Virus record (IMG/VR): IMGVR_UViG_3300019458_000005
Coordinates: 1-64,000 of that record
From: a virus
DNA length: 64,000 bases
Direction: 5' to 3' (one strand)
A program made the translations under genes and the position numbers. Positions 1 through 54,888 of this stretch are shown piece after piece. The notes below the pieces were generated by a model. The model had not been told where the DNA came from. It made no database searches and worked only from the letters and a program-made list of their open reading frames with translations. The first letter of the stretch is position 1; the number at the start of each line of letters is the position of its first letter.

Positions 1-59
1 AGGGCGTCGCGGTCTCCGGTCAGTGCCTGCCGTTCAAGCGTTCGGGTCCGTTCGTCCAC
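1..59 (-). CDS. hypothetical protein, N-terminal part only (gene runs off the left edge)
   Basis: GTG at 59..57 lies 1 nt after the TAG of the upstream ORF. The frame stays open to position 1 (VDERTRTLERQALTGDRDAL...). Confidence 0.25.
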   Translation of the reverse strand, partial: MDERTRTLERQALTGDRDA

Positions 60-18175: not shown

Positions 18176-18224
18176 GCAGTCCCCTTTCGTGAGGCTAAAC
18201 TGTAGCAGCGCCGGCAGGTGCGCT

Positions 18225-18240: not shown

Positions 18241-18292
18241 GAGAACCTCACCAGCCGCGTCATCCTGGCAGGACCTCGCCACGTCTTGAGTT

Positions 18293-19576: not shown

Positions 19577-19668
19577 GTGTCTCGTTCTGTTCTGCCTGGC
19601 CAAGACAGGCCGTGTTCTAGAGCCAGCTCGAGGACCTCGAGCGATCCCCGAGCTGGCTCGTGAAGTCT

Positions 19669-39029: not shown

Positions 39030-39033
39030 CTCC

Positions 39034-39701: not shown

Positions 39702-39703
39702 CC

Positions 39704-39991
39704 ATGCCGCTCTCGGTCGAGGCCATGCAGAAGCTGCAGCACATGTCTGGCTTGCGCCAGATGGGGCGGTTCTCTGGCCTCGGTCAGAGCGCCGCTCAGC
39801 AGTCCTCGCAGCAGACGAACCAGGCCACGACCGTCAACGTCTACGCAGGCGGCGGCAACATCAGCGACTCGGCCAACGTGGGCAGCTCGGTCGGGAAGGT
39901 GATCCAGGCCGCGCAGCTGAACTACGTCCCGATCATGCTCGGTCTCGCGGGAGCCGCCGCGCTGTGGCTCCTGACCGGGAGGCGGCAGTGA
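39704..39991 (+). CDS. tail-anchored membrane protein (95 aa)
   Basis: Ends LNYVPIMLGLAGAAALWLLTGRRQ. Shares QQ.SQ.T...T.VN..A.GG....SANVGS.VG with the preceding protein. Confidence 0.6.
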   Translation: MPLSVEAMQKLQHMSGLRQMGRFSGLGQSAAQQSSQQTNQATTVNVYAGGGNISDSANVGSSVGKVIQAAQLNYVPIMLGLAGAAALWLLTGRRQ

Positions 39992-40308
39992 GGCTCAACG
40001 CTCCAGCGACCAACCGCGGCATGTTCGTGATCGCGATGCCAAGTCGCGGATCCAGCGGTCTGGGAGCTTCCGCGATCCAGGAGATGTTCGACAAGCTCTT
40101 CAACAAGAAGAAGTCGAAGGCGCGCGAGGAGAAGCGCGATCTCGCGGTCAAGAACTACGGCGAGACCGAGCAGGTCGCGCAAGCCGCCACCTTCCAGATC
40201 CAGCAGGCCTCACAGAAGAACGTCATGACCTACCTGGTGGCCGGAGCAGCCGCAGCCGGAGCGCTGGTTCTCCTGGCTGAGCTGCTCTCGCCCCCGAGGG
40301 GACGCTAG
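39988..40308 (+). CDS. tail-anchored membrane protein (106 aa)
   Basis: GTG 39988 forms a GTGA overlap. Ends MTYLVAGAAAAGALVLLAELLSPPRGR. Confidence 0.55.
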   Translation: MRLNAPATNRGMFVIAMPSRGSSGLGASAIQEMFDKLFNKKKSKAREEKRDLAVKNYGETEQVAQAATFQIQQASQKNVMTYLVAGAAAAGALVLLAELLSPPRGR

Positions 40309-40309
40309 C

Positions 40310-41317
40310 GTGCAGGCCGAACAGGAGCTCTCTGACGCCGAGTGGCTGCGGAGGATCCGGCTCAAGAATCGCCAGGAGCTCGGGCTCGAGGGCCCGCAGG
40401 GAGTCGCGACGATGGACGGCAACGTGAACGGCATCGGCGACTTCATGTACATGAACGCAGCCGCGGGGGGCGTGCCCAGCCCCGAGCAGGACCTGCTCGC
40501 GTACTACGCCGGTCGCCAGGGCGGGAACGCGGACGGCTGGCAGCCGTCCATGATCGACCCCAGGCAGGGCACCTACCACCAGATGCAGATGCCCACCCAC
40601 GCCAACTACGTCGGCCAGGAGGTCGCCGGACAGGCCGTCTCAGGCCTGGGCTACATGGGCGCGGTGGGCGTCTCGGCTGATCAGAAGGCTCAAGCCACCC
40701 TGGCGGTCGAGGGCGCGATCCGCGAGTCCGACCTGCTGTCTCAGCAGACGAACAACGTCTCGGCGGCGCGCCTGATCCTCGAGGCGCAGCGCTCGAGGCT
40801 CTCGAGCCTGAACTGGACCGACAGCTCGTGGGGCGTCGTCGGGCCGCGCTACTCCAGCCGCGCCGACCTGCTCAAGAAGCTCACCGAGGCACAAGCGCGC
40901 GTGATCGCCCGCTCGGGCGCGGTCCGTGAGGACGGCAAGGCGATCTTCGACCCTCGCTCCGTCAACCCGACCACCGGCAAGGCGCGCGTGGACAGCCAGA
41001 TCGGCGCAGCCGCTGGGTCGCTGGTCCAGTCCGGCAAGGAGACTGCGGCCGAGGTCGGTGGCCTCCTGGGAAGCCTCTCCAAGGTCACACAGTTCTTCCT
41101 GGGCTCTCCAACCAGAATCCTGGTCACGACCAGCATCGGACTCGGGGTCTACGGCCTGGTCTACACCGACCTAGGCAAGAAGATCAGCCGGAAGGTCTTC
41201 GGTAGCAAGAAGAAGAACCCTCCGGCTCGTAACCGCCACAAGAAGGCCGCGGTCCGCAAGAACCCCAGCCGCAAGCGGCGCAAGCGCTACCACGAGAACG
41301 ACTCGAGCGACGAGTAG
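40310..41317 (+). CDS. membrane-anchored protein with long Lys/Arg tail (335 aa)
   Basis: ILVTTSIGLGVYGLVYTDLG followed by KKISRKVFGSKKKNPPARNRHKKAAVRKNPSRKRRKRYHENDSSDE. Confidence 0.65.
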   Translation: MQAEQELSDAEWLRRIRLKNRQELGLEGPQGVATMDGNVNGIGDFMYMNAAAGGVPSPEQDLLAYYAGRQGGNADGWQPSMIDPRQGTYHQMQMPTHANYVGQEVAGQAVSGLGYMGAVGVSADQKAQATLAVEGAIRESDLLSQQTNNVSAARLILEAQRSRLSSLNWTDSSWGVVGPRYSSRADLLKKLTEAQARVIARSGAVREDGKAIFDPRSVNPTTGKARVDSQIGAAAGSLVQSGKETAAEVGGLLGSLSKVTQFFLGSPTRILVTTSIGLGVYGLVYTDLGKKISRKVFGSKKKNPPARNRHKKAAVRKNPSRKRRKRYHENDSSDE

Positions 41318-41362
41318 GCGGCTCGCAACCCCGCATGTTCTTCAGTAGAATGCGAGCTCGTC

Positions 41363-42277
41363 ATGCGGAATGCTTCATCGGATCATAGGGCTCGCCGCGC
41401 CAGTCGTGACTCGGATCGCGTGCAGGAGGCCCAGGAGGCCGTCCGACGCGGGGACATCCAGCGCTACATCGAGCTCCGCGCCGGCTACGACAAGCCGTTC
41501 GGGGTATGGGCGCGTTGGGCGGCCAACTTCGGCGATCCGGTGTGTCGTGCGGCGCTGCCGGTTGAGCACGAGTGGCTGGAGTGGGCTCACGAAGAGAGCT
41601 TCAACAACGTCGGAGACGGCAGGGCGCGCTGGCCTGAGCGCGGACACAGGCCCAAGCGTGGGCGCAACCCATCTTGGCCTTTGACTCTGTACCAGATCCG
41701 CAGTCGTGCTGGGACCTGGAAGAAGCCAGAAGGTTGGAGCCTGTTCGAGTCCGGCGAACACGGCCTCGAGATCGAGCGAGACGACGACGATACAGACTTC
41801 AAGTACGACGACGACGCGCAGCAGTTCGTGTTCGATCGCGCTTGCGAGGGAAGCGTCTTGCACCTCTCGGCGCTCCTGTGGGTGCGGCTCTACCACTACC
41901 TGTTCTCGGTGGACAGTATTCAGACGCTTAGGGTTCTGTATTCGGACGTAGCGACCGCTGAAACTCTGCAGAGTCTATATCCGGACGGAGGTCCAGCTGA
42001 GCACGCACGACTCGCTGAACAAGCTGAGCTCCTGAGGCCTAGTCCGGTGATTTACTACGACGAGATCTACTCATCTCGGTTCGGCAGAACGTTTCAGCCG
42101 GCACTAACGTCCTACGGTCTTATGCTCGAACACCTCAAGAACGACAAGATTGGCACCGGAGTCGCTCCAGAAGCCTACCTGGTCGAGCGTTTCTTCTGGA
42201 ACGCGGTCCTCGAGTCCGCGCCGCCCTACACAGCAGCTCAAGCCGGCGCGCTGCGCCGCGAGAACGGATGGTGGTAA
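41363..42277 (+). CDS. hypothetical protein, member of the RN(A/P)..D.R.RRA.R-leader family
   Basis: Starts MRNASSDHRARRASRDSDRVQEAQEAVRRGDIQRYIELRAG. Confidence 0.65.
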   Translation: MRNASSDHRARRASRDSDRVQEAQEAVRRGDIQRYIELRAGYDKPFGVWARWAANFGDPVCRAALPVEHEWLEWAHEESFNNVGDGRARWPERGHRPKRGRNPSWPLTLYQIRSRAGTWKKPEGWSLFESGEHGLEIERDDDDTDFKYDDDAQQFVFDRACEGSVLHLSALLWVRLYHYLFSVDSIQTLRVLYSDVATAETLQSLYPDGGPAEHARLAEQAELLRPSPVIYYDEIYSSRFGRTFQPALTSYGLMLEHLKNDKIGTGVAPEAYLVERFFWNAVLESAPPYTAAQAGALRRENGWW

Positions 42278-44326
42278 GTGAAGTCTCGCGTGCAGGTCTC
42301 GCAGCTCACGGGTCGTTCGCACTTAGACCACTGGGCGGTGTGCCAGGTGCCGATCATCAAGGGTGGCTACATGCCGAACCCGCCCCGCCAGCTGCCGGTC
42401 GCTCCCGGGGGGCTCGTGCCTCTCGAACAGGTGCCTCTCGCGCCCAAGACGAAGTTCCGGCGCCCTCCCTGGAATGGCTGCGTGATCTACGAGGGGCCCA
42501 GCCTGATCACCGGCAAGCCGATCGTGGCTATCGCGATCGGCTTCCAGGACGGGAGCGAGAACCGGAAGACCGGACCCATGATCCAAACGTTCATCCTCTG
42601 CGCTGATATGCCTCCACAGGAGGCGATCGACACCGGCGCAGACGACGCGATCTGCGGGGAGTGCCCGGCTCGCGGGGTCGGAATCGCGCCTCTCGAGCGA
42701 CCGCGTCCGCGCGCCTACCGGAAGCGCGGCTCGGGCTGGGAGCACGGAGAGGGCGTCGGTCAGGCCTGGCAAGCGCCTGAGGGGCGGTTCTGCTACGTGG
42801 TCGTGGCGCAGTCGCCCACGAACGTGTGGTGGAAGTACTGGAACGGCGGCTACCCGCGCGTGAGCCTCCAGGAGCTCGCCTACTACACCTGGGGACGTAA
42901 CGTGCGCTTCGGGACCTACGGAGACCCGGCCGCCGTACCCACCGAGGTGTGGGCGACGATGGCCGAGTCCGCCAACTACGTGCTCGCCTACACCCATCAG
43001 TGGCGGCTGCCCAGCGCGCAGCCGCTGCGGCAGTGGGCCATGGCCTCCACCAACAGCGAGGAGGATCTGCGCGAGGCCACCGCCATGGGCTGGCGCTCGT
43101 TCCGGATGCTCAAGGCCGGCGAGCAGCTGGTTCCTGGGATCGAGATCACCTGCCCGGCCAGCGACGAGCACGAGGAGAAGAAGGGCAAGAAGGCGAAGTG
43201 CATCGAGTGCCGCAGCTGTCAGGGTCTCGCTTCGAAGTCGCGCCGAAGCGTCGCGATTCGCGAGCACGGCTACCTGGTCGATCCAGGAGGCCGGAAGAAG
43301 CGCACACGGAGGGAGAAGGAGAACCCCGACGAGGACCTGCGCGCGCTCGAGCGCCGCGTTCAGCTCGGTGATCAGGAGGCCTTGGCGCGCCTCCAGGCTG
43401 CGCAGCTCCGCAGCGGCGTTCGGCAGCCCCAGCGCAAGTATCTGATAGACCTGGCTGGCGAAGTCCTGGGTGAGATCGGCGGCGCGGGGCTGGCCTCGCG
43501 CTCGGACTACCTGGACCGGAAGATCCACGCGGCCGCCATCAAGGCCGTGCTCAAGCAGATCGGAGTCAAGGCGAGCGTGACCACGCCCAATTACGCCTGG
43601 GCGAGCTCGGTAGAGATCAAGTCGGCGCGCAAGGTTCCTGGTTGGCTCGGAGAACCGACCCACGACCACCTGAACTTCGACGAGTCGCGCACGATCTGGG
43701 ACGCCTTCGGACTCGAGTCGTGGGAAGAGCCCAAGGAAGAGCGACGCGCGAATTGGCGCGGAATGCAGAACTTCTCGCTCTACCCCAACGCGCGCGAGGA
43801 CCGCTCGGACCCGCGCACAGACTACTTCAGTCCCGGCGGTCCGCGTCTCCGAGAGGACCTGTGGGATGTCTACAAGGCCGCTTTGCGAAAGGAGCTGGCC
43901 AAGCCGCCCCGAGCCAAGAAGCCCAAGAAGCAGAACCCGTGGGTCAGCGGCTCGGACGGGATCCCGGAGAACGTTCGGGCTCACGTCGAGCTCACCGACG
44001 CGGACGGGATCCCCTACTGGCGCTACGCGATCGGAGAGGGTCAGCTGGCGGAGCTCGACGACGAGGACCCGCTCATGCAGAACTACGAGGAGATCGAGGG
44101 CGTGCTCCGCTCCCACCTCGAGGCCGCCGTGGCGTTCGGAGCTTCTCACCCGCACGACGGGAGCGTGCCTCACCCACGAACCGGAGACATGGCTCACTTC
44201 GCGATCGGCAACAGGCGCTGGGCCACGATGGTCACGATGTACGAGCCGGGAGTGATCAAGCTGGGCACGTTCCCAGAACGAGGGAACCCGCGCCGCCCGA
44301 GCCGCAGGAAGCGCGGCCGTCGGTGA
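42278..44326 (+). CDS. mosaic protein: N-terminal Cys-rich conserved phage domain plus internal leader-type module plus C-terminal domain
   Basis: ICGECPARG..CYVVV..FGTYGDPAAVP..YTHQW..MAS..CPAS..CIECRSCQG block. Internal ENPDEDLRALERRVQLGDQEALARLQAAQLRSG at 43319-43417. Ends RGNPRRPSRRKRGRR. Confidence 0.7.
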   Translation: MKSRVQVSQLTGRSHLDHWAVCQVPIIKGGYMPNPPRQLPVAPGGLVPLEQVPLAPKTKFRRPPWNGCVIYEGPSLITGKPIVAIAIGFQDGSENRKTGPMIQTFILCADMPPQEAIDTGADDAICGECPARGVGIAPLERPRPRAYRKRGSGWEHGEGVGQAWQAPEGRFCYVVVAQSPTNVWWKYWNGGYPRVSLQELAYYTWGRNVRFGTYGDPAAVPTEVWATMAESANYVLAYTHQWRLPSAQPLRQWAMASTNSEEDLREATAMGWRSFRMLKAGEQLVPGIEITCPASDEHEEKKGKKAKCIECRSCQGLASKSRRSVAIREHGYLVDPGGRKKRTRREKENPDEDLRALERRVQLGDQEALARLQAAQLRSGVRQPQRKYLIDLAGEVLGEIGGAGLASRSDYLDRKIHAAAIKAVLKQIGVKASVTTPNYAWASSVEIKSARKVPGWLGEPTHDHLNFDESRTIWDAFGLESWEEPKEERRANWRGMQNFSLYPNAREDRSDPRTDYFSPGGPRLREDLWDVYKAALRKELAKPPRAKKPKKQNPWVSGSDGIPENVRAHVELTDADGIPYWRYAIGEGQLAELDDEDPLMQNYEEIEGVLRSHLEAAVAFGASHPHDGSVPHPRTGDMAHFAIGNRRWATMVTMYEPGVIKLGTFPERGNPRRPSRRKRGRR

Positions 44327-45927
44327 AGCTAAGGAACGCAGACGCACGCGGTCGGCGCGCGGAGCGAGACGGAGATCGCGAACGCGCCTGGCGTGAGGCC
44401 GTGCGCGCTGGGCATGTGTTGACGCCGATCAGATCAGGCAGCTTCGCTGGAGGCCTCGAGGCGAGGTTCTTTGGCCTGATGTTCCGCGACGGCGGGCCCG
44501 GTCCAGGCATTGCCGTTGACTACTTCGAGGAGTATGCGCTGATCCAGATCCTCTTCTGGCAGAGGCACGGAGAGGTAGCTCAGCCCGACGGCTGGACGAT
44601 CGGCGAAAGCTCGCGAGACACAGGTCCGGATGCGGGCTGGACCGTCTGGGTCCGCAGGAACCATCGCCCGGACGTGGTGCCATGGTGGGCGGACCGAGAG
44701 ATCCAGATGGCCGTCCGCGAAGCCATGCAGCGCCGTCTGGTGCAGGACGATTCGGCGCAGGAGAACCCAGTGAGGCGGAACGGACCCGACGAACGAGCAC
44801 GGCGCGCAGAGCGTTCGGTGTCCGGCTCACTCTCGCTCGAGGAGCGCCAAGCCGCAGAGGCTCAGATCCTCCGGGCTCACGGCATGGAGTGGCGGGGTCG
44901 CGTGCCCAGCCCCAAGTTCGTGTGGCGTGGGGGAGCTCGCGGGGTTCTCTATCAGCCAGGCGAGGGCGACGACGGGCACTGGACGTGGCACAGCTGCTTC
45001 GACCCGCTCACCACCCTGGACAACGACTACCAGGCCGTACTGGTCTCCAGGCAGATCGAGCGCTGGCTGTTGAATCGCCTGATCCTGGGCGACTTCGACG
45101 AGGACGATGCACTCGCCCTCTGGCACAAGTGGGCCGTGAACAGTAAGGACCTCCTGGGGTTCACAGGGACCTACGGCTCTCGCAAGCAGGTCCTAGAGGC
45201 CGCCGAACTCCAACAGAACGCACGCTTCCTGGACATGTCCCGAGGCGGCTGGACCGAAGTGGAGGTCGGCCTCATGCTGCAGCGACCGCTCGAGAAGCCA
45301 GACGGGCGTCCGTATACGAACCCTCCCAGCGGAGACCAGCGTATGCGCGCTCTCGAGCGCCGCGCCCAGCTCGGTGACCAGGAGGCGCAGGCACAACTCC
45401 ACGCCGCTCAGAAGCGCAGCGCTACCGTGCCCACGGTTCGTGCTCCGGTGAGCTACGAGAACCTCATGCAGTTGGGCATGGGGCCGTGGCATCACAGCAC
45501 GCCATGGCTCGGTCCGTGGCCCAAGGAGACCGCTCACGTCGTCATGTGGGCCGCTCAGCAGGCCCAGTCTGGTCACGCGGCCGTCGCCAACGAAGACAAC
45601 AGCGGCCGCCTGGTACAGAACCTCGGTTACCTGATGAAGAACAACCGCAGCGTCACGGCCATGGAGTTCGTGCGCGGAGACCCATCTCAGGACAATCTCC
45701 TGTTCGTCTACCTGGACCGCGACTGCCGCAGCCAGGGAATCTACGTGACCCGCTACGCGAGCGAGGCCTTGTTCCGGCGCTGGGTCTCGCGGCGGATTTT
45801 CTCGGGCGTGCTGGTCTCGTTCCGCGACCCGGACTGGGTCGTCACCGAGCACGGCCGCGTCGAGAAGAACGGCACGCGCTGGTGGCCGGCTGACACCGAA
45901 TGGACCCACCGCGGGGAGCTCCGATGA
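44323..45927 (+). CDS. mosaic hypothetical protein (534 aa) with three leader-type modules
   Basis: GTGA-coupled start, VKLRNADARGRRAERDGDRE.. Internal copies at 44761-44817 (ENPVRRNGPDERARRAERS) and 45319-45420 (NPPSGDQRMRALERRAQLGDQEAQAQLHAAQKRS). Confidence 0.7.
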   Translation: MKLRNADARGRRAERDGDRERAWREAVRAGHVLTPIRSGSFAGGLEARFFGLMFRDGGPGPGIAVDYFEEYALIQILFWQRHGEVAQPDGWTIGESSRDTGPDAGWTVWVRRNHRPDVVPWWADREIQMAVREAMQRRLVQDDSAQENPVRRNGPDERARRAERSVSGSLSLEERQAAEAQILRAHGMEWRGRVPSPKFVWRGGARGVLYQPGEGDDGHWTWHSCFDPLTTLDNDYQAVLVSRQIERWLLNRLILGDFDEDDALALWHKWAVNSKDLLGFTGTYGSRKQVLEAAELQQNARFLDMSRGGWTEVEVGLMLQRPLEKPDGRPYTNPPSGDQRMRALERRAQLGDQEAQAQLHAAQKRSATVPTVRAPVSYENLMQLGMGPWHHSTPWLGPWPKETAHVVMWAAQQAQSGHAAVANEDNSGRLVQNLGYLMKNNRSVTAMEFVRGDPSQDNLLFVYLDRDCRSQGIYVTRYASEALFRRWVSRRIFSGVLVSFRDPDWVVTEHGRVEKNGTRWWPADTEWTHRGELR

Positions 45928-46163
45928 GACGACCGATCGCGCCTAACAGCCCGCTCTCGCGGCTCAAGATCGCCGGCTACGTGGTCTCGGCGGTGCCGTT
46001 CCGCTGCGGGACCTGCCAGTACGCCGGGCCGGCCGTGCCAGGCCTCCTGACTCTTGACGACCGGCCCATGCACCACTGCAAAAAGCTCGACGCAGGCGTC
46101 GACCCGGACAAGGGCTGCTGCGACCTGTGGAGCAATCCGAACGAGGAGCTAGCTCGCGCATGA
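45924..46163 (+). CDS. Cys-rich hypothetical protein (79 aa)
   Basis: ATG 45924 forms an ATGA overlap. CGTC..HHC..CC motif. Confidence 0.5.
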   Translation: MRRPIAPNSPLSRLKIAGYVVSAVPFRCGTCQYAGPAVPGLLTLDDRPMHHCKKLDAGVDPDKGCCDLWSNPNEELARA

Positions 46164-48127
46164 GCACCGACGAGCGCATGAGGCGCGCAGAACGCGACCG
46201 AGACCGTCACCGCTCCGAGCTCGAGGCGCGCCGTCGGGGAGTCGTGCCCAACTTCCGGCTGTTCTTGAAGTCGCTGGGGGGCCTGCGCGACTACGGTCCC
46301 AACTTCGCGCGCATGGAGTTCAGCGACGGTTGGTCGCTCTCCATCCAGCCGTCTCGGATCTACCTGAACTCGTGGGAGCTGATGTGGATCCCGCCGCCAT
46401 TCGCTTCATCGCTCAGACCTTCCCAGTGGAAGTCTCCTCCTACGCGCAAGCGTCCCGAGGGAGACGACGAGATCACGCCCAGCACTGCGCTCTCTGATCA
46501 GGAAGTTCAGGAGATCTTCGAGATGGTCGTGCAGAGACACGGTCTGCCGATCTACCCGCTCGAGCAGCGCCAGAACCCGCCCTACTCCCCGGAGGAACTC
46601 GAGCGCCGCCGGCAGGAGTTGCTCGACGACGGCCACAGCACAGGGCTCGCGGACATGCTGCTGCGTCGCGAGGTACGGCCGGTCGCGCGTACGGACCTGC
46701 GCGGACACCAGCGCTCTGGTCAACCCTACCGCGGCCAGGGACGCGGTCAGGCCGAGCCGCAGCGCCAGCATGAGGGCTGGATCACGAACCCGTCAGACGA
46801 GCGCATGCGGCGCGCCCAAAGAGACGGAGACCGTCTCCGTTTTTCCCGCGAGTCGAAACGGGCTGGAGATCCGATGCCGATGGAGCGCCTGCACTGCCCG
46901 TGGTGCGGCGGAAGCCCTCCGCCGCCAGAGCTCTTGCAGCGCGGAAGGCTCGGCCAGCGCTACCGTCGCCACCTATCTCGTCACGGAGATCCAGACGTGA
47001 AGCCGAACCCCGACGAGCGCATGCGCGAGCTCGAACGCCGAGCCCGACTGGGTGATGCCGAAGCGCTCTCTCAGCTCCAGGCGCTTTCGCGTCGCACGCA
47101 GGACTGGAAGGCTCCCAAGACCGTGCGGCCATACATTGGTCATCGTCCTGGTGGACCAGTCTTCGAGGGCGAGATCGTGTGGGGCGACGAGATCAAGGTC
47201 CTGAAGACGCTCGGGCCAGGCCTCGTGCTCACGCGCTCGCTGGAGGGCGATTTCGAGTCTGAGCGCCTGAAGATCCAGAACCGCGAGCGCCGTTTAAGGC
47301 TGGGTAAATTCACGATCATGGCTCCTGCGTCCGGAATGGCGCTCGTAAGCTGCGTTTCGCGCCCGTTCGCGGAGATGTTCGCCCCGCAGGTCGCTACGGC
47401 CTGCAGCTGGCTGAACGAGAACGTAACCGAGATCCTGGCCGACAAGCCGTGCGTCGATCGCATCTACGAGCTGTTCGCGCAGTACGGGATCCGGGTCGGC
47501 CTTCGCAGTAACCCCGACGCCGGTGACGCCGACTGGGATCCGACCGAGTGGCTTACCGGGCGCATGAAGAAGGCGCGCAAGGAGCGCCTCTCGAGAGACA
47601 CCGCCTGGTGGGACACGCCCGAGCGTCGCGCAGCTCATGCTCGCGAGGAACAGGAGCACCGCATCAGGTCCGCCCAGCAGCACGCCGCCTGGGAACAGAT
47701 GCCGCCGATCCGGGTGTGCCTGGTCCAGTGTTCTGACTCGAAGTTGCCGCACCCAGCTCCGGCGCGAGACCTCTACATGGCCAGCCAGCTGTTCCAGCAG
47801 GCGCGCGGCTTCGCGGAGCGTCGCTGTCAGGACTGGGTAGTGCTCTCCGCCCTACACGGGATGGTCACGCCGGACCAGGTGATCGCGCCCTACAACCTCG
47901 AGCTCAAGAAGCTCTCCAAGGAGGAACGCGCTCGCTGGGGCCACCGGGTCAGCTATGCGCTCCGGCAGCGCTTCGGCCCGCGCGCGACATACGTCGGTCT
48001 GGCCAGCGCGCTCTACCTCGAGCAGCTCGACCCCGACATCCAAGCCGTGCTCGAGAAGCCGCTCACAGGCATGGGAATCGGCACGCACAAAGGCTGGCTA
48101 AAGCGGAACCCGCGGAGGAACTCGTGA
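46160..48127 (+). CDS. mosaic protein (655 aa) with three leader-type modules and a C-terminal DUF6884-like domain
   Basis: MSTDERMRRAERDRDR at the start. Internal NPSDERMRRAQRDGDR (46787-46834) and NPDERMRELERRARLGDAEALSQLQALSRR (47006-47095). The C-terminal CSDSK..ARDLY..VLSALHGMV..APYN..GMGIG pattern is recalled as DUF6884-like. Ends KRNPRRNS. Confidence 0.7.
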   Translation: MSTDERMRRAERDRDRHRSELEARRRGVVPNFRLFLKSLGGLRDYGPNFARMEFSDGWSLSIQPSRIYLNSWELMWIPPPFASSLRPSQWKSPPTRKRPEGDDEITPSTALSDQEVQEIFEMVVQRHGLPIYPLEQRQNPPYSPEELERRRQELLDDGHSTGLADMLLRREVRPVARTDLRGHQRSGQPYRGQGRGQAEPQRQHEGWITNPSDERMRRAQRDGDRLRFSRESKRAGDPMPMERLHCPWCGGSPPPPELLQRGRLGQRYRRHLSRHGDPDVKPNPDERMRELERRARLGDAEALSQLQALSRRTQDWKAPKTVRPYIGHRPGGPVFEGEIVWGDEIKVLKTLGPGLVLTRSLEGDFESERLKIQNRERRLRLGKFTIMAPASGMALVSCVSRPFAEMFAPQVATACSWLNENVTEILADKPCVDRIYELFAQYGIRVGLRSNPDAGDADWDPTEWLTGRMKKARKERLSRDTAWWDTPERRAAHAREEQEHRIRSAQQHAAWEQMPPIRVCLVQCSDSKLPHPAPARDLYMASQLFQQARGFAERRCQDWVVLSALHGMVTPDQVIAPYNLELKKLSKEERARWGHRVSYALRQRFGPRATYVGLASALYLEQLDPDIQAVLEKPLTGMGIGTHKGWLKRNPRRNS

Positions 48128-48918
48128 TCCGCACCCGGCGGAACGCTGACGACCGAGCGCGTCGTGCCCAGCGCGATCTCGCGCTCGATCCGCACAGCGT
48201 CGAGGCGCGCGTCCGCTCGCTCCAGGAGCTCCTTCGGCAGGGCCTCGTGTCAGCCACGATCCTGAGGAAGTGCGCCAAGATCGACTGGGCGCCGGCCGTG
48301 GCTCTGTTCCCCAAGGAGGCGCACAAGGGCAGCAACCTGCGTCAGAGCCCGCGCTGGATCCTCGATCACCCCTGGTGGAGGAACGCCAACCAGAAGGTCC
48401 AGGTGTGGTGGGCGGCCGCGCAGGTAGCCCTGCCGTGGATCACGTCGGAGTGGGTCAAGAACGACCTGACGTTGGGCTACCAGCAGGAGTTGGGCTCCAG
48501 CCTCTCATCGCAGGACGTCTACGACATGCTCGTGGCCGGCCTGCAGGCCTCGGCGATGTACGCCGAGAGGCAGCTCACGCGGAGCAAAATCATCCCTCTG
48601 GCTGACCAGATCGGAGCTTGGCAGGAGATGACCCAAGTCTGGGAAGTTGGAGACGCGCTAGCGAACGCGATTGACATCGTGGACATGATCATCTTCTCGG
48701 CGGTTTACGGACCACAGACAGGCAGTCTCGACAGCTTTCGCGAAGTGACATTCATCGACCGCGCGGTGTGGCGCCTGTTCGACTGGCACTGGGCCGACGA
48801 GCGCTTCGAGCTTCGTGAGCGCGTCGAGCGAGTCAACGGCCTGCGCGACCAGCTGTGTGAGGCGATGGTTCGGTTCGACGTCGAATCGAGACAGAAGAAG
48901 TTGAGCGGTGGTCGGTGA
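48124..48918 (+). CDS. hypothetical protein, leader-family member
   Basis: GTGA-coupled start. IRTRRNADDRARRAQRDLALDPHSVEARVRSLQELLRQG. Confidence 0.65.
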   Translation: MIRTRRNADDRARRAQRDLALDPHSVEARVRSLQELLRQGLVSATILRKCAKIDWAPAVALFPKEAHKGSNLRQSPRWILDHPWWRNANQKVQVWWAAAQVALPWITSEWVKNDLTLGYQQELGSSLSSQDVYDMLVAGLQASAMYAERQLTRSKIIPLADQIGAWQEMTQVWEVGDALANAIDIVDMIIFSAVYGPQTGSLDSFREVTFIDRAVWRLFDWHWADERFELRERVERVNGLRDQLCEAMVRFDVESRQKKLSGGR

Positions 48919-49892
48919 GAAAGCTGAGTCACAGGAACCCGCGCTCGAGTGATCAGCGCTACCGAGAGCTGCTTCGCGCTGGAGCTTCAGGAGACGTGGA
49001 GGCCGCCCTCCAGGCGATCGTCGAAGCGGTGCGGCACGGCATGTATCTGTCGCCGACAACCGAACGCGACTGGCACAGCGTGGCCCAGCAGAACGGATTC
49101 AGGGTCGCGCAGTTGCGCTTGCTGGCCTGGGCCGGCTGGAAGCCGGCGCTAGGGCTCTTGAAGTCTCTGCCTACTGACATGGACTTCATGGTGATGGGAC
49201 GCACGGGACGACAACGAGAACGGCCGCCAGCAAGTAAGCGTATAGACGACCCACAACCACCGTATCCCTACTACACCCACAAAAAGGACGACCCAGACGC
49301 CGTCAAGGCCTACGAGGACTGGGGTCGCCGTCACGCGTTCGCGTGGCGCGACAAGATTCCGCTCGACGCCTTCAAGAAGATCGGGCCCAAGATCGCCGAG
49401 GAGGTCGGCGCGCGGGTAATGCGCGCGGTTGCTTGGGCTGTGCTCGGGCTCACGCGAGACACGATGAAGAGTCTCTATGGCTTCGATCCTGTTGAGATCG
49501 TGCGCGTGCCATACAAGGACAATCCGGAAGGATCCGAGGCGCTGCGGCGCGCGTCTTATCCACCAGAGCACAACTGGACTACTTCGAGCACGTATGCCAA
49601 CGACATGGCCCGGATGGCTCGCGGTTGGCATGAGGCATACTTCTGGCAGGTGATCCCACACCAAGAACACCGTCAGTGCCACGAAGCCGCAAACATCCTC
49701 GAGTGGGTCCTGGACGGCCTGGCAGCTGAACAGATGCATCTACTTGGGATCAAGTCTGCGCGCCCGCCGATCACGGTCGTGCGACCAATCGCCAAGCAGA
49801 TCAAGGACGTGGCAAGCAAGGCTGCCGCGATCGCGATCGCACAAGAACTGGCAGGCGTTCCTGACGAGCTCGAACAGTACCGCAGCCGATGA
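48915..49892 (+). CDS. hypothetical protein, leader-family member
   Basis: GTGA-coupled start. RKLSHRNPRSSDQRYRELLRAGASGDVEAALQAIVEAVRHG. Confidence 0.65.
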   Translation: MRKLSHRNPRSSDQRYRELLRAGASGDVEAALQAIVEAVRHGMYLSPTTERDWHSVAQQNGFRVAQLRLLAWAGWKPALGLLKSLPTDMDFMVMGRTGRQRERPPASKRIDDPQPPYPYYTHKKDDPDAVKAYEDWGRRHAFAWRDKIPLDAFKKIGPKIAEEVGARVMRAVAWAVLGLTRDTMKSLYGFDPVEIVRVPYKDNPEGSEALRRASYPPEHNWTTSSTYANDMARMARGWHEAYFWQVIPHQEHRQCHEAANILEWVLDGLAAEQMHLLGIKSARPPITVVRPIAKQIKDVASKAAAIAIAQELAGVPDELEQYRSR

Positions 49893-50875
49893 CCAAACAG
49901 AGAGACGTTCGTCCGGAGCTGCTCGAGCTCGAGCGGCACGTATCTTCGCGTTGGCCCGAACAGGTCCTGCTCGCAAGGCGCGGCCTGTGGGTGGTTCACA
50001 TCTACCCCCAGCAGTGGCTGGCCCTGATCGAGTCCGGCTCCCAGAACGCCGCCTCCAAAAAGAAGGCCTGGGAGCGCTGGAAGCGCCGCGTGCGCGATCT
50101 GGGTCTCGAGGCCAAGCCGCACGAGAGCCTCCAGCCCCCCGTGTTCGCGTTCTTGGTCGAGGCGCTGGGTCAGCCAGCTCAACACGAAGATATCGAGACC
50201 AGGTTCGAGAGGGTCGCCGACCGGTCCTACAAGCCCAAGGGAATCTCCAGACGCAAGGCTGGCCTGGCTGGCATGTCCGGCCACCCGATCCCAGCCTTCC
50301 AGGCGGCCATCAGACTCGAGGAGATCCGCGACTACCTGGGCCTGACCCAAGCGCGCATGGCCGAGCTCCTGGGGCTGACCACCAACGCCTACGCCAAGAT
50401 GATCTGCAACGGCCGGCTTGGACGAAACAAGACCGCCGACTCTGATCTACTGGAGCGCGCCGAGGAGCTCCTCGACGAGGTGGTGATCCAGCCCAAGTGG
50501 TCATCGACGCGCCTTCAGCGCATCACCCCCGAGATCCTTCACGCGGCTCTCGTGGCGTGCGACTGGAAGGTCCAACCAGCCACGGCTCTACTTGGCTACA
50601 AGAGCGACGATCCGATCAAGAAGCTGGCCATCGAGTACGGATTCGGTCCCATGCTGCGGAAGAAGTCACACGTGGCCTCTCGGATCTCCAAGGACGAGAT
50701 CCGCGCAGCCATGCGAGACGCCTCCTGGAGCATCACCAGGTGCGCCAAGCGCATGGGTATCTCGGCCAGCACGCTCCGGCGCGCGATCGTAGCTCACGGG
50801 ATGCAGGCCGAGCTCAAGCCGCACATGCGCTACTACAGCGGAAAGAAGCGCAGCTCGAGCTGGCTCGACGGCTAG
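49889..50875 (+). CDS. multi-HTH DNA-binding protein
   Basis: ATGA-coupled start. XRE-like IRDYLGLTQARMAELLGLTTNAYAKM, plus further HTH-like segments (QPATALLGYKSDDPIKKLA; ITRCAKRMGISASTLRRAI). Confidence 0.6.
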   Translation: MTKQRDVRPELLELERHVSSRWPEQVLLARRGLWVVHIYPQQWLALIESGSQNAASKKKAWERWKRRVRDLGLEAKPHESLQPPVFAFLVEALGQPAQHEDIETRFERVADRSYKPKGISRRKAGLAGMSGHPIPAFQAAIRLEEIRDYLGLTQARMAELLGLTTNAYAKMICNGRLGRNKTADSDLLERAEELLDEVVIQPKWSSTRLQRITPEILHAALVACDWKVQPATALLGYKSDDPIKKLAIEYGFGPMLRKKSHVASRISKDEIRAAMRDASWSITRCAKRMGISASTLRRAIVAHGMQAELKPHMRYYSGKKRSSSWLDG

Positions 50876-50902
50876 AGACCAAAACAGCTAGTATGCCCAG
50901 GC

Positions 50903-51148
50903 ATGCACCACCTGAAAAACGGCCTCCACGTGGAGCGCATCGAGACCCCCGAGGGTCCGAAGATCAGGTTCGTGCTCAAGGCGCTGTTCGAGACGGGCAC
51001 GGTCTTGTGCGAGATCTCGCTCAGAGAGTGGGCCACGGCCGTCGCCAATACCGCAGCTCGCGGCGAGTCGTTGACCTACCAGACGATCCTCGACGCGCTC
51101 ACCGAGCCGCTCCTTCCCAAGTGGCGACCAGGCGACGCAGGAGCGTGA
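50903..51148 (+). CDS. hypothetical protein (81 aa)
   Basis: ORF track. Contains a fourth CTGAAAAAC 9-mer (plus strand, 50912-50920). Confidence 0.45.
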   Translation: MHHLKNGLHVERIETPEGPKIRFVLKALFETGTVLCEISLREWATAVANTAARGESLTYQTILDALTEPLLPKWRPGDAGA

Positions 51149-51150
51149 AC

Positions 51151-52503
51151 ATGGCCAGACGACATCCCAAGAAGAACCCCCAGCTCCTGGCCGTGGTCGG
51201 CGCGGCCGGCCTGCTGGGGATTCCGAACCCGCCCCGCAAGCACCATCCGGCCTCCATGTGGCCGACACTTCGAGAGTCGATTGGCGCCCTGCACGCCAAG
51301 TGGAGCGGAGTTCCTGGCGCAGAGCCACAGCTCTCGCAGGCCCAGATGGAGAGCCTGATGCAGCACTTGGCGAGCTGCCGGTCCTGCGCCAAGAAGGCGG
51401 TCGCCAGCGGCATCCCTGAATACTCGATCCAGGCCTACCAGCGTCCCGCCTGGAAGACGAACCCATCCAGCGCTCGAGCTTGCGACCCCTGCAGGACCGG
51501 CAACCACGCGGCCTGTCACTCGGACATGGCCCCCGGGGCGTGCGGTTGTTGGTGCTGCGCGACCGGCACCCAGCGCTACGAGGGATCGGCGCCGGTGGTG
51601 CCCAGGAAGCAGCGCGTGTGGCTGCAGGGGAAGCGGAACCCGCTCAAGACCTGCGATCCGCACGCACGGCCCATCCAGCCGTCGGTCGCGCAGAAACTCC
51701 TGGGCAAGAAGGTGCGCGTCCACTTGAACCTCCACAACGGCTGCTACGTGATCAGCCTCCAGGGGAAGGTTGTCGGCTACACGCGCGCGCTGGGGCTCGC
51801 GAACGTGAGGAGCAAGGTCAGCAAGGCCGGACACCGTCGCTGTCGGGACGAGATGACCCGTAACGTCCACGCCCACCTCGAGGGCCATCTGATCGACGTG
51901 GGTGATCACCTGCTGAGCGAGTCACCTCCGCCGGGGTCTCGCGCGATCACCTACAACTGCCTCACCCATCCGCCGTGCTTCTTCTACCGCGACAGCGGCG
52001 AGTGCTTCGAAAGCGCGGCCGTGGCGTTCTTCGGTCCACGCGGGGTGGTCGTGGGCGGCGGTCGTGCGGAATCCAGGAGCAAGCGCCGAAACGCCCCCAC
52101 GAAGCCCTCGAAGCGCAACCTGGGCCCCATGCCCAAGGTGGTCGGCGAGGTCGACATCTCCGAGTTCGAGCGCATGTTCCCAGGTAGCGAGCTCCGCCAG
52201 GGCCAGGACCGCTACGGCCTCTGGCACGGCGAGGAGGCCGACGCCGGGATTGTGATCCGCCAGGACGACGGAAAGCCGGGCACGACCCGGAAGCTAGTCG
52301 TAGGCCTGGGCGCGACGCCCAAGACCACCTACCAGGTCCCATGGGACGGCACGACCAAGGAGGACCACGTGTGGGAGCACGAGCACCCACCCGGCAAGGA
52401 GCCACTCTTGGTTCTCGACCCGACCACCAACGTCGTCAGCCAGCTGCCTCGGAATCCCCGAGCGCGGATCGACGACTTCTTCCGCGATCCGGGGCACGAC
52501 TGA
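51151..52503 (+). CDS. Cys-rich hypothetical protein (450 aa)
   Basis: ATG 51151. MARRHPKKNPQ.., CRSC..CDPC..HAAC..CGCWCC cluster. Several (K/R)NP motifs. Confidence 0.6.
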   Translation: MARRHPKKNPQLLAVVGAAGLLGIPNPPRKHHPASMWPTLRESIGALHAKWSGVPGAEPQLSQAQMESLMQHLASCRSCAKKAVASGIPEYSIQAYQRPAWKTNPSSARACDPCRTGNHAACHSDMAPGACGCWCCATGTQRYEGSAPVVPRKQRVWLQGKRNPLKTCDPHARPIQPSVAQKLLGKKVRVHLNLHNGCYVISLQGKVVGYTRALGLANVRSKVSKAGHRRCRDEMTRNVHAHLEGHLIDVGDHLLSESPPPGSRAITYNCLTHPPCFFYRDSGECFESAAVAFFGPRGVVVGGGRAESRSKRRNAPTKPSKRNLGPMPKVVGEVDISEFERMFPGSELRQGQDRYGLWHGEEADAGIVIRQDDGKPGTTRKLVVGLGATPKTTYQVPWDGTTKEDHVWEHEHPPGKEPLLVLDPTTNVVSQLPRNPRARIDDFFRDPGHD

Positions 52504-52940
52504 TGAACCGCCGCAACGCCGAAAGCTCCGACGCTCGAAGACGGCGCGCTTCACGCGGCCGCCGTCAGACCGGTTCGCGCGAGGACGCGGAGCGCGAGTA
52601 CCTCGAGCTACTGAGGCAAGGCAGGCCTCCGGACTTCACAGAGCGCGCACGGCAGGTCATCGAGGAAGGCTGGAACGGCCAAGACTGGCGCTCAGCAAAC
52701 TGGCAAGAAAACAGTGGAGATATCCCATCTGAGAGATTCCTGGTAATCACCAGCGCAGTCGACTACGACGCCGAACACTGGTTCAACGGCGCGAACACCC
52801 TCGCTGAAGCAGCGCACTTCTTGATTGACGCTCTTCACTCCGAGTACCCTGACATGGTGAGTTACGTCATCGACCTGATGTTCATGGAAGAGGTGCCGGC
52901 CCGCTACCGCGCCGAGGTCGGCGGGATCCTGTCTCCGTGA
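52503..52940 (+). CDS. hypothetical protein, leader-family member (145 aa)
   Basis: TGATG-coupled start. MNRRNAESSDARRRRASRG..EREYLELLRQGRPP. Tandem paralogue of the next gene. Confidence 0.6.
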   Translation: MNRRNAESSDARRRRASRGRRQTGSREDAEREYLELLRQGRPPDFTERARQVIEEGWNGQDWRSANWQENSGDIPSERFLVITSAVDYDAEHWFNGANTLAEAAHFLIDALHSEYPDMVSYVIDLMFMEEVPARYRAEVGGILSP

Positions 52941-53434
52941 GACATCGAAACGCCAGCTCGGATGACCGTGCGCGCCGAGCTGAGCGCTACGCTCGAGGAG
53001 GGGACCGCGCCCAGTTCGAGGTGCATTACCAGGAACTTCTCCGGCAGGGTCGGGCGCCGTACTACAACGCCCAGGTGGCCGAGCTCCTGAACTCGGAGTT
53101 CAATCTGCCGTTCGTGCCGGAGTGGATCCGAGATCTAGACCTGTCTGAGTTCATTCAGGCCGAGGTGGTTGGGCCAGGAGAGCTGGGCGGCGTATGGTTC
53201 CGCTACCTGGTGGTCGTGTGCGGCGTAGTCCACAGCTCGGCTGATGCGTGGCTGACCAGCGGCAAGACGCTCAAGGAAGCCGCAGAGCAGTGCCTGATCC
53301 AGCTGCGCGGCGACATCGATCTTCCTTGGCAACCGGTCCTGGTGATCGACCTGGCGTTCATGGAGCCAGTCCCGTTCGACATCGGGATCAGCGTAGGAGG
53401 CGAACAGGCCTGGCAGAGCGAATGGGATCGCTGA
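52937..53434 (+). CDS. hypothetical protein, leader-family member (165 aa)
   Basis: GTGA-coupled start. MRHRNASSDDRARRAERY..VHYQELLRQGRAP. The C-terminal ..LKEAAEQCLIQL..VLVIDLAFMEPVP parallels ..LAEAAHFLIDAL..SYVIDLMFMEEVP in the previous protein. Confidence 0.6.
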   Translation: MRHRNASSDDRARRAERYARGGDRAQFEVHYQELLRQGRAPYYNAQVAELLNSEFNLPFVPEWIRDLDLSEFIQAEVVGPGELGGVWFRYLVVVCGVVHSSADAWLTSGKTLKEAAEQCLIQLRGDIDLPWQPVLVIDLAFMEPVPFDIGISVGGEQAWQSEWDR

Positions 53435-53595: not shown

Positions 53596-54888
53596 ATGAT
53601 CGAGTGGTGGGCGCTCGCGAACCCCCCGCGCCGGAGTCGGCGCCGTCGTCGCCGCTCGAATCCGCTCCCCGCAGGCTGGGGCGGAACCAAGAAGCCCAAG
53701 AAGGCCAAGAAGCGCTCCGGCAAGTCGGCCGCCAAGGCCCGCGCTGCTCAGCAGCAGCGCGACCGCGAGTCGCGCGCCAAGAACCTGCTCTCGGCCTGGA
53801 ATCGCGCTTCGAAGAAGAAGAAGCGCAAGAAGAGCAAGGCGACCAAGAAGTCCAAGAAGAAGTCGGCGCGTAAGGTCGCGCCGAAGCGCAAGAAGAAGGC
53901 CGCGCGTTCGCGCCGCGGCGCTCAAGGAGGGCCCGTGGCCAAGAAGAAGCGGAAGAAGTCCGGCAAGAGGAAGAGCTCCAAGCGCTCGGCCGCCGCCCGC
54001 AAGGGCGCGCGTACCAAGGCGCGCAACAAGGCTAAGCGGAAGGCCGCCGCCAAGAAGGCCGCCCGCAGCCGCGGGAAGAGCGGCGGGGGAGTGCGCAAGG
54101 CCGCGCGTCGTCGCGGCCGGAAGCGCCCGGCTCGCGCCAAGGTCCGGAAGACCCGAGGCGGGAAGGGCCGCATCGTCTACGCCAAGGGCAAGCGCCTGCG
54201 CTGGCGCCGCACCGGCCGCCACTCAGGTCGTCTCGTGATCCGCGGAAATCCGGGCGGGTCAGGCGGGATCCAGGGGAACCTCAAGGCCCTCCTCAAGCCC
54301 GAGCTGTACATCGACGCGGCCCAGGTCGCGCTCGGGCTCGGTGGAGCGCTGGCGCTCCCGGCGCTCCTCGCCCAGAAGATGGGCAAGCCGATGCTCAACC
54401 GCGGCCTCGTGGGCGTGGCGGCGACCGCCGTCTCGTCCGCGGTTCTCGCGGCGGCCGCGGCCGCGGCCGGACAGCGCGCGCTCTCCGGTCGCCTGTTCGC
54501 CGGTGGCGTGCTCGCGGCGGTTGTCAAGCTCGCCGTGCAGGTCATCCCGCCGTCGCTCCTCCAGAAGATCCTCCCGCTCAACGAGCTCAACCGCGGCGCG
54601 ATCGCTGCGGCTCCGGCCGCGAGCGGTGCGGTCAACGGGATGGGCTACTACGGGAGCGGCGTGGGCAACCTCGTGCCCTACTCCGCGATCAACGGCATGG
54701 CCGACCTGCTCACGCCCGAGCAGATGATCGCAGGCGAGGCGTTCTACGGGCGCATGAACGGCATGGGTCGCACCGGCGACTACCTGCAGCTGGGCATGGG
54801 GGACTACCTCCAGTTCGGCCAGGCGGCCAACGTGCCCCAGTTCACGTCCGTGCTCGACAGCTTCAACCCCGGGGGTGAGGCCTTCTAG
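53596..54888 (+). CDS. H1/protamine-like Lys/Arg-rich domain fused to a multi-helix hydrophobic domain
   Basis: GGAGA upstream of ATG. About 200 aa of KKPKKAKKRSGKSAAKARAA..KKKKRKKSKATKKSKKKSARK..RRRGRKRPARAKVRK. Then hydrophobic helices (AQVALGLGGALALPALLA; GLVGVAATAVSSAVLAAAAAAAG; LFAGGVLAAVVKLAVQVI). Confidence 0.7.
   Translation: MIEWWALANPPRRSRRRRRRSNPLPAGWGGTKKPKKAKKRSGKSAAKARAAQQQRDRESRAKNLLSAWNRASKKKKRKKSKATKKSKKKSARKVAPKRKKKAARSRRGAQGGPVAKKKRKKSGKRKSSKRSAAARKGARTKARNKAKRKAAAKKAARSRGKSGGGVRKAARRRGRKRPARAKVRKTRGGKGRIVYAKGKRLRWRRTGRHSGRLVIRGNPGGSGGIQGNLKALLKPELYIDAAQVALGLGGALALPALLAQKMGKPMLNRGLVGVAATAVSSAVLAAAAAAAGQRALSGRLFAGGVLAAVVKLAVQVIPPSLLQKILPLNELNRGAIAAAPAASGAVNGMGYYGSGVGNLVPYSAINGMADLLTPEQMIAGEAFYGRMNGMGRTGDYLQLGMGDYLQFGQAANVPQFTSVLDSFNPGGEAF

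Follow-up and report, generated by a model that had tools for sequence, protein, structure and literature searches.

Hairpin modules of the 41363-53434 gene cluster

The DNA analysed here, referred to as the window, comprises positions 1 to 64,000 of the virus record IMGVR_UViG_3300019458_000005. Between 41363 and 53434 the + strand carries an operon-like run of co-oriented genes with overlapping or abutting stop and start codons. These genes carry modules that consist of a conserved segment, called the hairpin after its predicted fold, and a cargo domain behind it. The original prediction had noticed at least 12 copies of the segment in this region. All 12 align convincingly and were confirmed where it had placed them, as segments of about 30-40 residues in coding frames of the + strand with a high guanine-cytosine (GC) content at third codon positions. 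Very probably, the hairpin is a protein module of about 30-36 residues that is absent from earlier catalogues and heads many interchangeable cargo domains.

A profile of the 12 copies gave its own copies 34-59 bits, and the best unrelated match in a six-frame search of the whole 64-kb window scored 5.8 bits. After leaving one copy out, each was recovered by the other eleven with 12.7-30.4 bits at a noise of at most 8.5 bits. A reading as generic low-complexity Arg-rich sequence fails on these self-matches. A second profile contained only the 228 instances from foreign proteins. It found the copies at 43319, 45319, 47006 and 48915 with 30.1-45.3 bits and gave lower scores of 12.0-18.8 bits to those at 44323, 46787, 48124 and 52937. 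The maximum over 20 residue-shuffled sets was 12.9 bits. The copies are listed with their coordinates, strand and scores (LOO, leave-one-out; FO, foreign-only profile; aa, amino acids; pLDDT, predicted local distance difference test).

41363..41461, +: copy 1, short subtype, N-terminus of a 304-aa gene (41363-42277), MRNASSDHRARRASRDSDRVQEAQEAVRRGD; 12-copy profile 40.8 bits, LOO 21.1 bits; the orthologous module in relative L009 (14067-14942) opens with a clear leader
43301..43426, +: copy 2, canonical long subtype, internal in a 682-aa gene (42278-44326), after a phrog_2554 domain (aa 66-331) and before a C-terminal cargo common to P0002, P0007 and P0011; FO 45.3 bits
44323..44421, +: copy 3, short subtype, N-terminus of a 534-aa gene (44323-45927), the GTG start overlapping the upstream stop (GTGA); LOO 25.1 bits, FO 12.0 bits; the orthologous module is internal in P0101 and reads NPSPDER
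44764..44886, +: copy 4, divergent, internal in gene 44323-45927, heading its cargo 2; LOO 12.7 bits; cargo 2 orthologues (P0052 and the 245-aa gene of this genome) have N-terminal leaders
45307..45432, +: copy 5, canonical, internal in gene 44323-45927, heading its cargo 3; 12-copy profile 59.4 bits, LOO 30.4 bits, FO 37.5 bits
46160..46249, +: copy 6, short subtype, N-terminus of a 655-aa gene (46160-48127), MSTDERMRRAERDRDRHRSELEARRRG; LOO 18.5 bits; AlphaFold2 helix aa 3-25; ATGA start/stop overlap
46574..46684, +: possible degenerate copy, internal in gene 46160-48127, QRQNPPYSPEELERRRQELLDDGHSTGLADMLLRR; below the profile threshold, contains Asn-Pro (NP); AlphaFold2 helices aa 144-156 and 161-169, pLDDT 76-83
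46775..46876, +: copy 7, short subtype, internal in gene 46160-48127; LOO 24.6 bits, FO 12.3 bits; 84% DNA identity to copy 6 over 44 nt
46988..47110, +: copy 8, canonical, internal in gene 46160-48127, preceding a region with a DUF6884/DpdC-like domain at its end; FO 39.2 bits; AlphaFold2 helices aa 284-296 and 300-314, pLDDT 73-91
48124..48252, +: copy 9, N-terminus of a 264-aa gene (48124-48918), GTGA overlap; LOO 17.6 bits, FO 15.7 bits
48924..49049, +: copy 10, N-terminus of a 325-aa gene (48915-49892), GTGA overlap, orthologue at L009 13174-14070; 12-copy profile 58.3 bits, FO 30.1 bits
52503..52631, +: copy 11, divergent, N-terminus of a 145-aa gene (52503-52940), a paralogue of the next gene (52937), both sharing the homologues P0046 and P0067; LOO 20.6 bits
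52937..53059, +: copy 12, N-terminus of a 165-aa gene (52937-53434); 12-copy profile 57.5 bits, FO 18.8 bits; AlphaFold2 helices aa 4-21 and 24-36, pLDDT 66-77
3..59, -: copy 13, N-terminus of a 286-aa gene running off the window start (full gene, L003 14677-15537), VDERTRTLERQALTGDRDALEELRAAWLRLH; 12-copy profile 17.4 bits, FO 23.4 bits
49889..50875, +: two-helix-turn-helix (HTH) protein of 328 aa (Xre-like and Fis-type HTH_8) without hairpin

The 13th copy, reading from 59 to 3 on the - strand, is cut by the window edge and was not part of the training set. Five to six further copies are located elsewhere in the genome beyond the window, at gene starts or inside genes, and the total for this genome is about 19. 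The weakest copies (41363, 44761, 46160 and 52503) represent a shorter, divergent subtype. Those at 41363 and 44761 were accepted because of their leave-one-out scores and of orthologous modules elsewhere with a clear leader. The copy at 52503 was accepted because of its leave-one-out score, its paralogy with the 52937 protein and their common homologues, and that at 46160 because of its leave-one-out score within the genome. For two genes the pipeline placed the start downstream of the motif, at 44479 for the 44323 gene and at 48996 for the 48915 gene. In both cases the starts of the original prediction are to be preferred, in view of the GTGA stop/start overlaps and of the motif itself. Automatic gene calling thus cuts the hairpin off two genes and under-reports the leader.

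Past the window end, a canonical copy (L002 17965-18087, +, 37-44 bits) is in an open reading frame that the pipeline had not called and that extends antisense into a hairpin gene on the - strand. Another uncalled gene (L002 15655-16212, +), beside an integrase, combines a hairpin with a Cys-rich zinc-ribbon-like domain. Within the cluster, the L5 gp82-like gene 51151-52503 is without a hairpin. In L009 and L010, relatives of the 49889-50875 HTH protein directly precede the hairpin clusters, and this protein may regulate the cluster. Behind the run, the + strand encodes at 53596-54888 a 430-aa protein without family match. Its first ~220 residues are extremely Lys/Arg-rich (RRSRRRRRRS, KKKKRKKSKATKKSKKKSARK) and its C-terminal half is Gly/Ala-rich and hydrophobic. 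It could be a DNA-condensing or internal protein.

The copies are conserved as protein. At identical residues the codon was shared 41% of the time, roughly the expectation from codon usage, and invariant Arg positions were coded by both CGN and AGR. Selection therefore acts on the protein. Most pairs of copies are only ~56% identical in DNA. The claim that codons differ between copies holds for most of the family, but two subgroups have kept DNA similarity, with 79% over 78 nt (43338 versus 45344) and 84% over 44 nt (46169 versus 46796).

Fold, cargos and relatives of the hairpin

The consensus of the hairpin is (K/R)(K/R)-N-(P/A/S)-D-E-x-L-R-x-L-E-R-x-A-x-x-G-D-x-E-A-x-x-x-L-x5-R-x-G. Over about 240 instances, the highest column conservation was observed for Asp6 (100%), Gly35 (about 100%), Arg10 (99%), Arg14 (98%) and Arg33 (93%). 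It was followed by Leu12 (84%), Glu13 and Gly19 (both 83%), Asp20 (81%), Asn4 (76%), Ala23 (75%), Ala16 (74%), Leu27 (61%) and Pro5 (50%, otherwise A, S or G). The value for Asn4 counts the aligned column only: an Asn is present at most six residues upstream of Asp6 in 166 of the 167 internal copies, and 62 of the 63 N-terminal copies with at least four residues before the Asp have kept it. The residue after this Asn varies (P, A, S, G, T or M). NP was found within six residues of the helix start in 130/167 internal copies (78%) versus 26/72 N-terminal copies (36%; p = 1e-9). The Pro after Asn, strongly preferred only in internal copies, is read as a helix breaker that sets the hairpin apart from the domain before it.

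With general helix-capping rules, N-P-D-E and G-D-P-E-A are read as N-capping boxes of two helices, with the glycines as C-caps. The hairpin is then read as an autonomous helix-turn-helix with a small Leu/Ala core and Pro-containing linkers on both sides. Asp6 and Arg33 would be brought together at its open end. AlphaFold2 placed two helices in the canonical copy at 46997-47104, in a model from a single sequence, and two in the leader of the 52937 protein, at the positions listed above. The shared leader that the original prediction saw on unrelated proteins is real; the conserved columns and the AlphaFold2 models describe it as a folded helix-turn-helix unit, not as a linear signal peptide. 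The best sequence matches in the PDB were de novo designed helical hairpins with SSDE-type capping loops (E = 0.005-0.09). Known short elements were rejected as identities of the motif: a Tat signal by the missing hydrophobic region, 2A-like skipping by the missing NPGP and helix-hairpin-helix DNA binding by the missing G-h-G loop. The R-x-L-E resemblance to PEXEL/RxLR is coincidental.

NP is a feature of the whole region. Its proteins contain 23 NP versus 7.6 expected and 8 [KR]NP versus 1.1 expected, and other window genes lack this excess. The basic (K/R)NP tails pointed out earlier are thus real and enriched within the window, but they are not consistent in related loci. In sequence, they look like the upstream half of double-NP linkers, and an intact linker of this type is present inside P0004 (RPNPGRKRRANPEDY).

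An exhaustive profile search of 1.84 billion representative proteins yielded 102 matches at E ≤ 1e-3, again not the result of a generic Arg-rich sequence. Seven belong to this genome and 95 are foreign, so the hairpin is not peculiar to this genome. All matches are from metagenomes. Foreign proteins have one to seven copies with a spacing of 66-515 aa (median 157). The ten foreign members that were checked are singleton or two-member clusters from metagenomes. Family members occur on contigs of up to 85, 169 and 273 kb. Relatives with several copies are:

L009: 65% GC, 16 copies, nearly every consecutive gene in the run opening with the leader
L010: 64% GC, 12 copies, nearly every consecutive gene in the run opening with the leader
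L014: 69% GC, 8 copies, adjoining a virion structural gene
L011: 44% GC, 3-4 copies

In L014, the hairpin genes end ~1.7 kb upstream of the gene for the virion structural protein phrog_1645 (E = 2.5e-87), which identifies the hairpin-bearing elements as phages. Between the hairpin cluster and the phrog_1645 gene, this 85-kb relative encodes a small protein with collagen-like GPxG repeats (13726-14142, +).

The view that the motif had not been described was borne out by the catalogues. No family of Pfam-A 2025, NCBIfam 20, PHROGs v4 or PADLOC 2 covers it, with whole proteins or with isolated copies (the latter at E ≤ 10), and the PDB held no natural homologue of the hairpin. Searches of deposited sequences with tblastn and the low-complexity filter on found nothing, neither with a two-copy consensus in 50,697 phages and 72,556 plasmids nor with P0002 in the phages only. 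The strict pattern RxLERRAxLGDxEA had five matches in 185,579 species genomes. All were chance matches, in wrong frames or contexts and without the rest of the motif. Scans of IMG/VR with the 655-aa protein and with a 7-copy alignment confirmed no relatives. A word-indexed search with the 12-copy profile gave no matches and was unreliable, as it missed P0001 despite the 84-bit score of this protein with that profile. In word-indexed searches, the 534-aa protein and P0002 recovered little more than themselves.

The position of the hairpin in proteins was analysed for 239 instances. N-terminal were 72, and 167 (70%) were internal. The hairpin opens 72 of 107 proteins, and in 29 the N-terminal domain lacks a leader. 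With a single exception, proteins continue for 72 residues or more beyond their last copy. This places the hairpin at the head of a module and not at its tail. The 266 cargo segments between hairpins fell into 199 BLAST clusters, including 164 singletons, in agreement with the claim of a shared leader on otherwise unrelated cargo. Recognisable cargos were a phrog_2554 domain, a DUF6884/DpdC-like domain, an Imm5-like domain, DUF5591, NUDIX and a GNAT acetyltransferase. For the ten foreign multi-copy proteins, the only cargo matches in Pfam were DUF5591 and NUDIX. The C-terminal DUF6884 region of the 46160-48127 protein (aa 518-650) has a match in PADLOC to the candidate family PDC-M57A (E = 1.6e-28) and a weak one to DpdC, which belongs to the 7-deazaguanine DNA-modification system. 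The foreign member P0010 carries DUF5591, a domain of archaeosine transglycosylases. The family assignments of the DUF6884/DpdC-like domain and of DUF5591 are hints that some cargos may act on DNA modification.

Outside the window, the N-terminal 40 residues (RTAERSGDAVAVLRWRLRSGEVSEERVELAAQLG) of an Imm5-like protein (PF21805, L003 17175-17717) resemble the second half of the hairpin, followed by a helix G-x-L-S-x-E-R-L-x-LAA-x-LG. The same helix follows a canonical hairpin in P0017.

Modules are exchanged as whole units. The 44323 protein has three cargos, and all were found again elsewhere with a leader of their own, at other positions or in separate genes; one of them is a separate gene of the same genome. 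In orthologous modules the junction alternates: internal copies read NPxDER and N-terminal copies RNAD. The unit of hairpin and cargo moves between fused and separate-gene states and between positions across genomes. Consecutive genes in the cluster share GTGA or ATGA where stop and start codons overlap. Together with the fused copies, this means that modules are either covalently fused or translationally coupled. Identity to the consensus was nearly equal for N-terminal (0.546) and internal copies (0.568). It follows that the hairpin serves a function of its own on each module. A MAFFT alignment stacked all homologues of the 44323-protein modules on the middle hairpin and was not used for structure prediction.

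The window comes from a metagenome (SRR7811943) and has 65% GC, with - strand genes in the first ~25.5 kb and + strand genes from 26.2 kb onward. The whole genome has ~81.7 kb, represented by the Logan contig SRR7811943_8512 (81,695 bp) and a JGI copy (81,808 bp). The window runs across the end of the Logan contig. This circular permutation indicates a circular or terminally redundant genome, which is probably complete. Outside the window, the genome was covered except for record positions 38333-41655 (~3.3 kb). Gene families in the window include SNF2 and PIF1 helicases, ThyX, a PD-(D/E)XK nuclease, Rad52, a C5 methylase, a class II ribonucleotide reductase and an intein-like insertion. L5 gp82-like and phrog_2554 domains are also encoded by this genome, and a tyrosine integrase and methyltransferases are encoded in the remainder of the contig. 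Judged by family matches, the recognisable genes are those of a large phage-like element. The window DNA had no close relative among deposited phages. At 29250-30890 (+), a 546-aa protein has a weak match to an intein-splicing domain (aa 165-447); its short similarities to phage genes labelled methylase and polymerase probably originate from the intein. The GC skew is -0.205 in the 2-kb bin 18001-20000, directly upstream of the C5 methylase gene, and within +/-0.08 in all other bins.

Possible function of the hairpin

We propose that the hairpin is a docking handle on each module, with a probability of roughly 35%. A conserved face of Asp, Arg and Glu would be recognised by one common partner. 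A new accessory domain behind the hairpin would then be routed or assembled like the others. A function of the hairpin on every module speaks against a mere spacer and against a signal for cleavage alone. Cleavage alone is disfavoured, since conservation is almost as high in N-terminal copies, where nothing has to be cut, as in internal ones. The destination is a more tentative matter. The best candidate is that accessory and counter-defence proteins would enter the particle or a phage-made assembly and be delivered together with the DNA, which we regard as a possibility at rather low odds. It draws on analogy with the leader of phage T4 internal proteins and with polyvalent proteins (see below), on the adjacency to a virion gene in L014 and on the kinds of cargo: NUDIX, GNAT and DpdC-like DUF6884 are typical of accessory or counter-defence proteins. 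On weak circumstantial grounds, the L014 adjacency and the cargo types in common with injected polyvalent proteins, the packaging or targeting role suggested in the original prediction is a live possibility.

Several observations weigh against a docking handle and its destination. No binding partner of the hairpin was identified. Synteny revealed as a conserved partner only the HTH regulator common to the window genome, L009 and L010, and this regulator is missing from the more distant relative L014, for which the comparison gave only a C5 methylase in common with the window genome. Family scans recognised no capsid, portal, terminase or prohead protease in the genome, so that a virion association is drawn from analogy only. 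One packaging handle would suffice for a polypeptide, yet every domain of a fused protein keeps its own. The stability of the hairpin, with caps, core and Asp-Arg staples, could alone explain all conserved residues without a binding face. The overall confidence of the AlphaFold2 models was low (mean pLDDT 58.5 and 49.8) and uninformative on interactions.

The hairpin could be a passive structural element, a stable charged spacer or N-terminal cap that insulates domains and keeps shuffled cargos soluble without any partner. This is conceivable but somewhat unlikely. The conserved positions all fit capping boxes, core and staples, Pro-containing linkers flank the hairpin on both sides and an insulator would need precisely one copy per domain. 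The sequence also resembles designed idealised hairpins and is confidently predicted from a single sequence. A spacer is needless, however, in the 145- and 165-aa single-domain proteins, which keep an N-terminal hairpin with the near-invariant Asp and Arg, and three exposed invariant Arg are unusual in a purely structural mini-domain. To our knowledge, there is no precedent for a universal natural solubility tag of this kind. Isolated alpha-hairpins commonly dimerise, and pairing of hairpins into four-helix bundles could dimerise cargos or gather ~20 modules into an assembly or condensate. Every fragment examined was multi-copy (~19 copies here, 16 in L009, 12 in L010 and 8 in L014), multivalent fused proteins suit an assembly or avidity role and the best PDB matches are designed hairpin homodimers. 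Self-association is nevertheless unlikely: the small hydrophobic face (Leu9, Leu12, Ala16, Ala23 and Leu27) is probably consumed within the hairpin, and AlphaFold2 predicted no confident packing between hairpins of a three-copy fragment (predicted template modelling score 0.20), a weak negative from a single sequence.

Asn-Pro and Asn-Ala are autocleavage sites in reovirus mu1 and nodavirus capsid proteins. The Asn-Pro junction might likewise be cut, by a phage or host protease or by slow Asn-cyclisation, with the hairpin as exosite and release of the domains. The preference of NP for internal copies and its three-fold enrichment in the proteins of the region suit a processing signal, and for polyvalent phage proteins a cleavage into individual domains is assumed (PMC5512222). 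This reading has a small chance, since N-terminal copies need no cut yet keep the Asn and the whole hairpin, and the variable residue after Asn is more in keeping with a helix N1 position than with a scissile bond. Family scans recognised no protease gene. The helix D-E-R-x-R-R-x-E-R after K/R-rich residues resembles arginine-rich motif (ARM) peptides such as that of lambda N (MDAQTRRRERRAEKQ), and linkers and some C-terminal tails are very basic. Tethering of modules to phage RNA or DNA by such a motif is improbable. The helix is charge-balanced by conserved Asp, Glu, Asp and Glu, and the conserved pattern of Ala, Leu and Gly indicates a folded hairpin and not an induced-fit ARM. The window contained no repeated RNA element and no Rfam family, although no dedicated search for RNA hairpins was made; direct DNA repeats at the copies are their own coding sequence only, and other repeat families are short with two or three copies. 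Modules clearly shuffle at the hairpin junction, the nearest relative of a hairpin was in the same protein or genome 37 times versus 2.6 expected and some copies have retained DNA identity (79-84% over 44-78 nt). The hairpin might thus be an in-frame recombination junction for cassette exchange, with protein conservation as a by-product. As a primary cause, this is largely refuted by randomised synonymous sites and CGN/AGR switches at invariant Arg, and only a very slight chance is left to it: the amino acid pattern is the same in contigs of 44% and 69% GC, and the low DNA identity of most pairs is insufficient for homologous recombination. Arg, Ala and Glu are abundant in the sequence, and Arg in the alternative frames of this 65% GC genome. 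An artefact of chance or composition is still practically negligible. It is refuted by left-out copies well above the six-frame noise, by shuffled sets of at most 12.9 bits versus real copies of up to 45 and by five strict-pattern matches that were all out of frame. The presence of the motif in L011 rules out a composition artefact.

In its widest form, the docking handle would be a universal portable address tag of an unrecognised lineage of uncultivated phages. Tagged domains would be loaded into the particle or an assembly and delivered with the DNA, and multi-module chains would possibly be released at Asn-Pro junctions. This extension is speculative and rather unlikely. If true, each phage would have a plug-and-play arsenal of ~20 injected effectors, and foreign proteins might be loaded by means of the tag. 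As a marker of module boundaries, the hairpin separates ~200 distinct unknown cargo families from one another as independent units. Phage accessory proteins that shuffle rapidly can usually not be annotated, and the hairpin makes the fusion and fission of entire modules directly visible. Current catalogues of protein families lack this family, which could be added to them. Even a purely structural natural hairpin of ~35 residues with near-ideal capping would be useful as a minimal folding unit.

Comparison with known systems

The leader of phage T4 internal proteins is a short N-terminal peptide that is removed by the prohead protease after Glu. Known as the capsid targeting sequence of IPI-III and Alt, it is common to unrelated proteins of one phage, as the hairpin is where it stands N-terminal (72 of 239 instances). 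Unlike it, the hairpin is a folded unit of 30-36 residues without a conserved (L/I)-x-E site, and 70% of its copies are internal.

Sel1 and TPR repeats share with the hairpin a helix-turn-helix of ~35 residues with small residues at packing positions. The stretch G-D-x-E-A-x-x-x-L is also similar to the start of helix B in the Sel1 consensus. Six copies that were scanned had no Sel1 or TPR match in Pfam even at E ≤ 10. Hairpins are single copies ~157 aa apart with an unrelated domain between them and do not form a tandem solenoid, and their invariant residues are charged (Asp and three Arg), not aromatic or small. The de novo designed hairpins (2L4HC2_23; PDB 5j0k and 6egc) are similar in their Ser/Asp-type capping loops that precede helices of Arg, Glu and Leu. 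There is no homology, and the likeness only demonstrates the appearance of an idealised capped alpha-hairpin.

MIX, LXG/WXG100, PE and the TIGR02996 element of Gemmata are conserved N-terminal elements on varied C-terminal regions, marking a common route or partner. The hairpin is similar, as one conserved element is joined to many different regions within a genome. For MIX, LXG and WXG100, there was no Pfam match on the proteins or their neighbours, and family scans found no secretion-system genes near the hairpin cluster. The NCBIfam model of TIGR02996 had no match at E ≤ 1. Unlike effector marker domains, the hairpin also recurs inside proteins at every domain boundary. If it is a docking or delivery handle, it would indicate a common route for the whole effector arsenal of a phage, comparable in concept to the RxLR or MIX markers.

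Polyvalent proteins are large mosaics of unrelated accessory and counter-defence domains in phages and conjugative elements (Iyer et al. 2017, PMC5512222). The hairpin proteins resemble them as large multidomain mosaics of up to seven modules with rapid domain shuffling in a phage-like context. Their domain repertoires overlap in NUDIX and GNAT, which occur in injected polyvalent proteins (PMC5512222). The anchor domains of polyvalent proteins (zincin-like MPTase, MuF, SNF2, methylase and ParB) were absent from the same chain in Pfam scans of the window and ten foreign proteins. In P0012, a ParB-like stretch was seen by eye only. A further difference is the hairpin itself, which precedes every domain and also heads single-domain genes. 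No such junction element is reported for polyvalent proteins, and the terms 'linker' and 'helical hairpin' are absent from the text of that study (PMC5512222). By analogy with these systems, a shared leader on polymorphic, shuffled effectors would be of an already known kind. What appears to be new relative to polyvalent proteins is a conserved hairpin, folded according to the models, before every domain.

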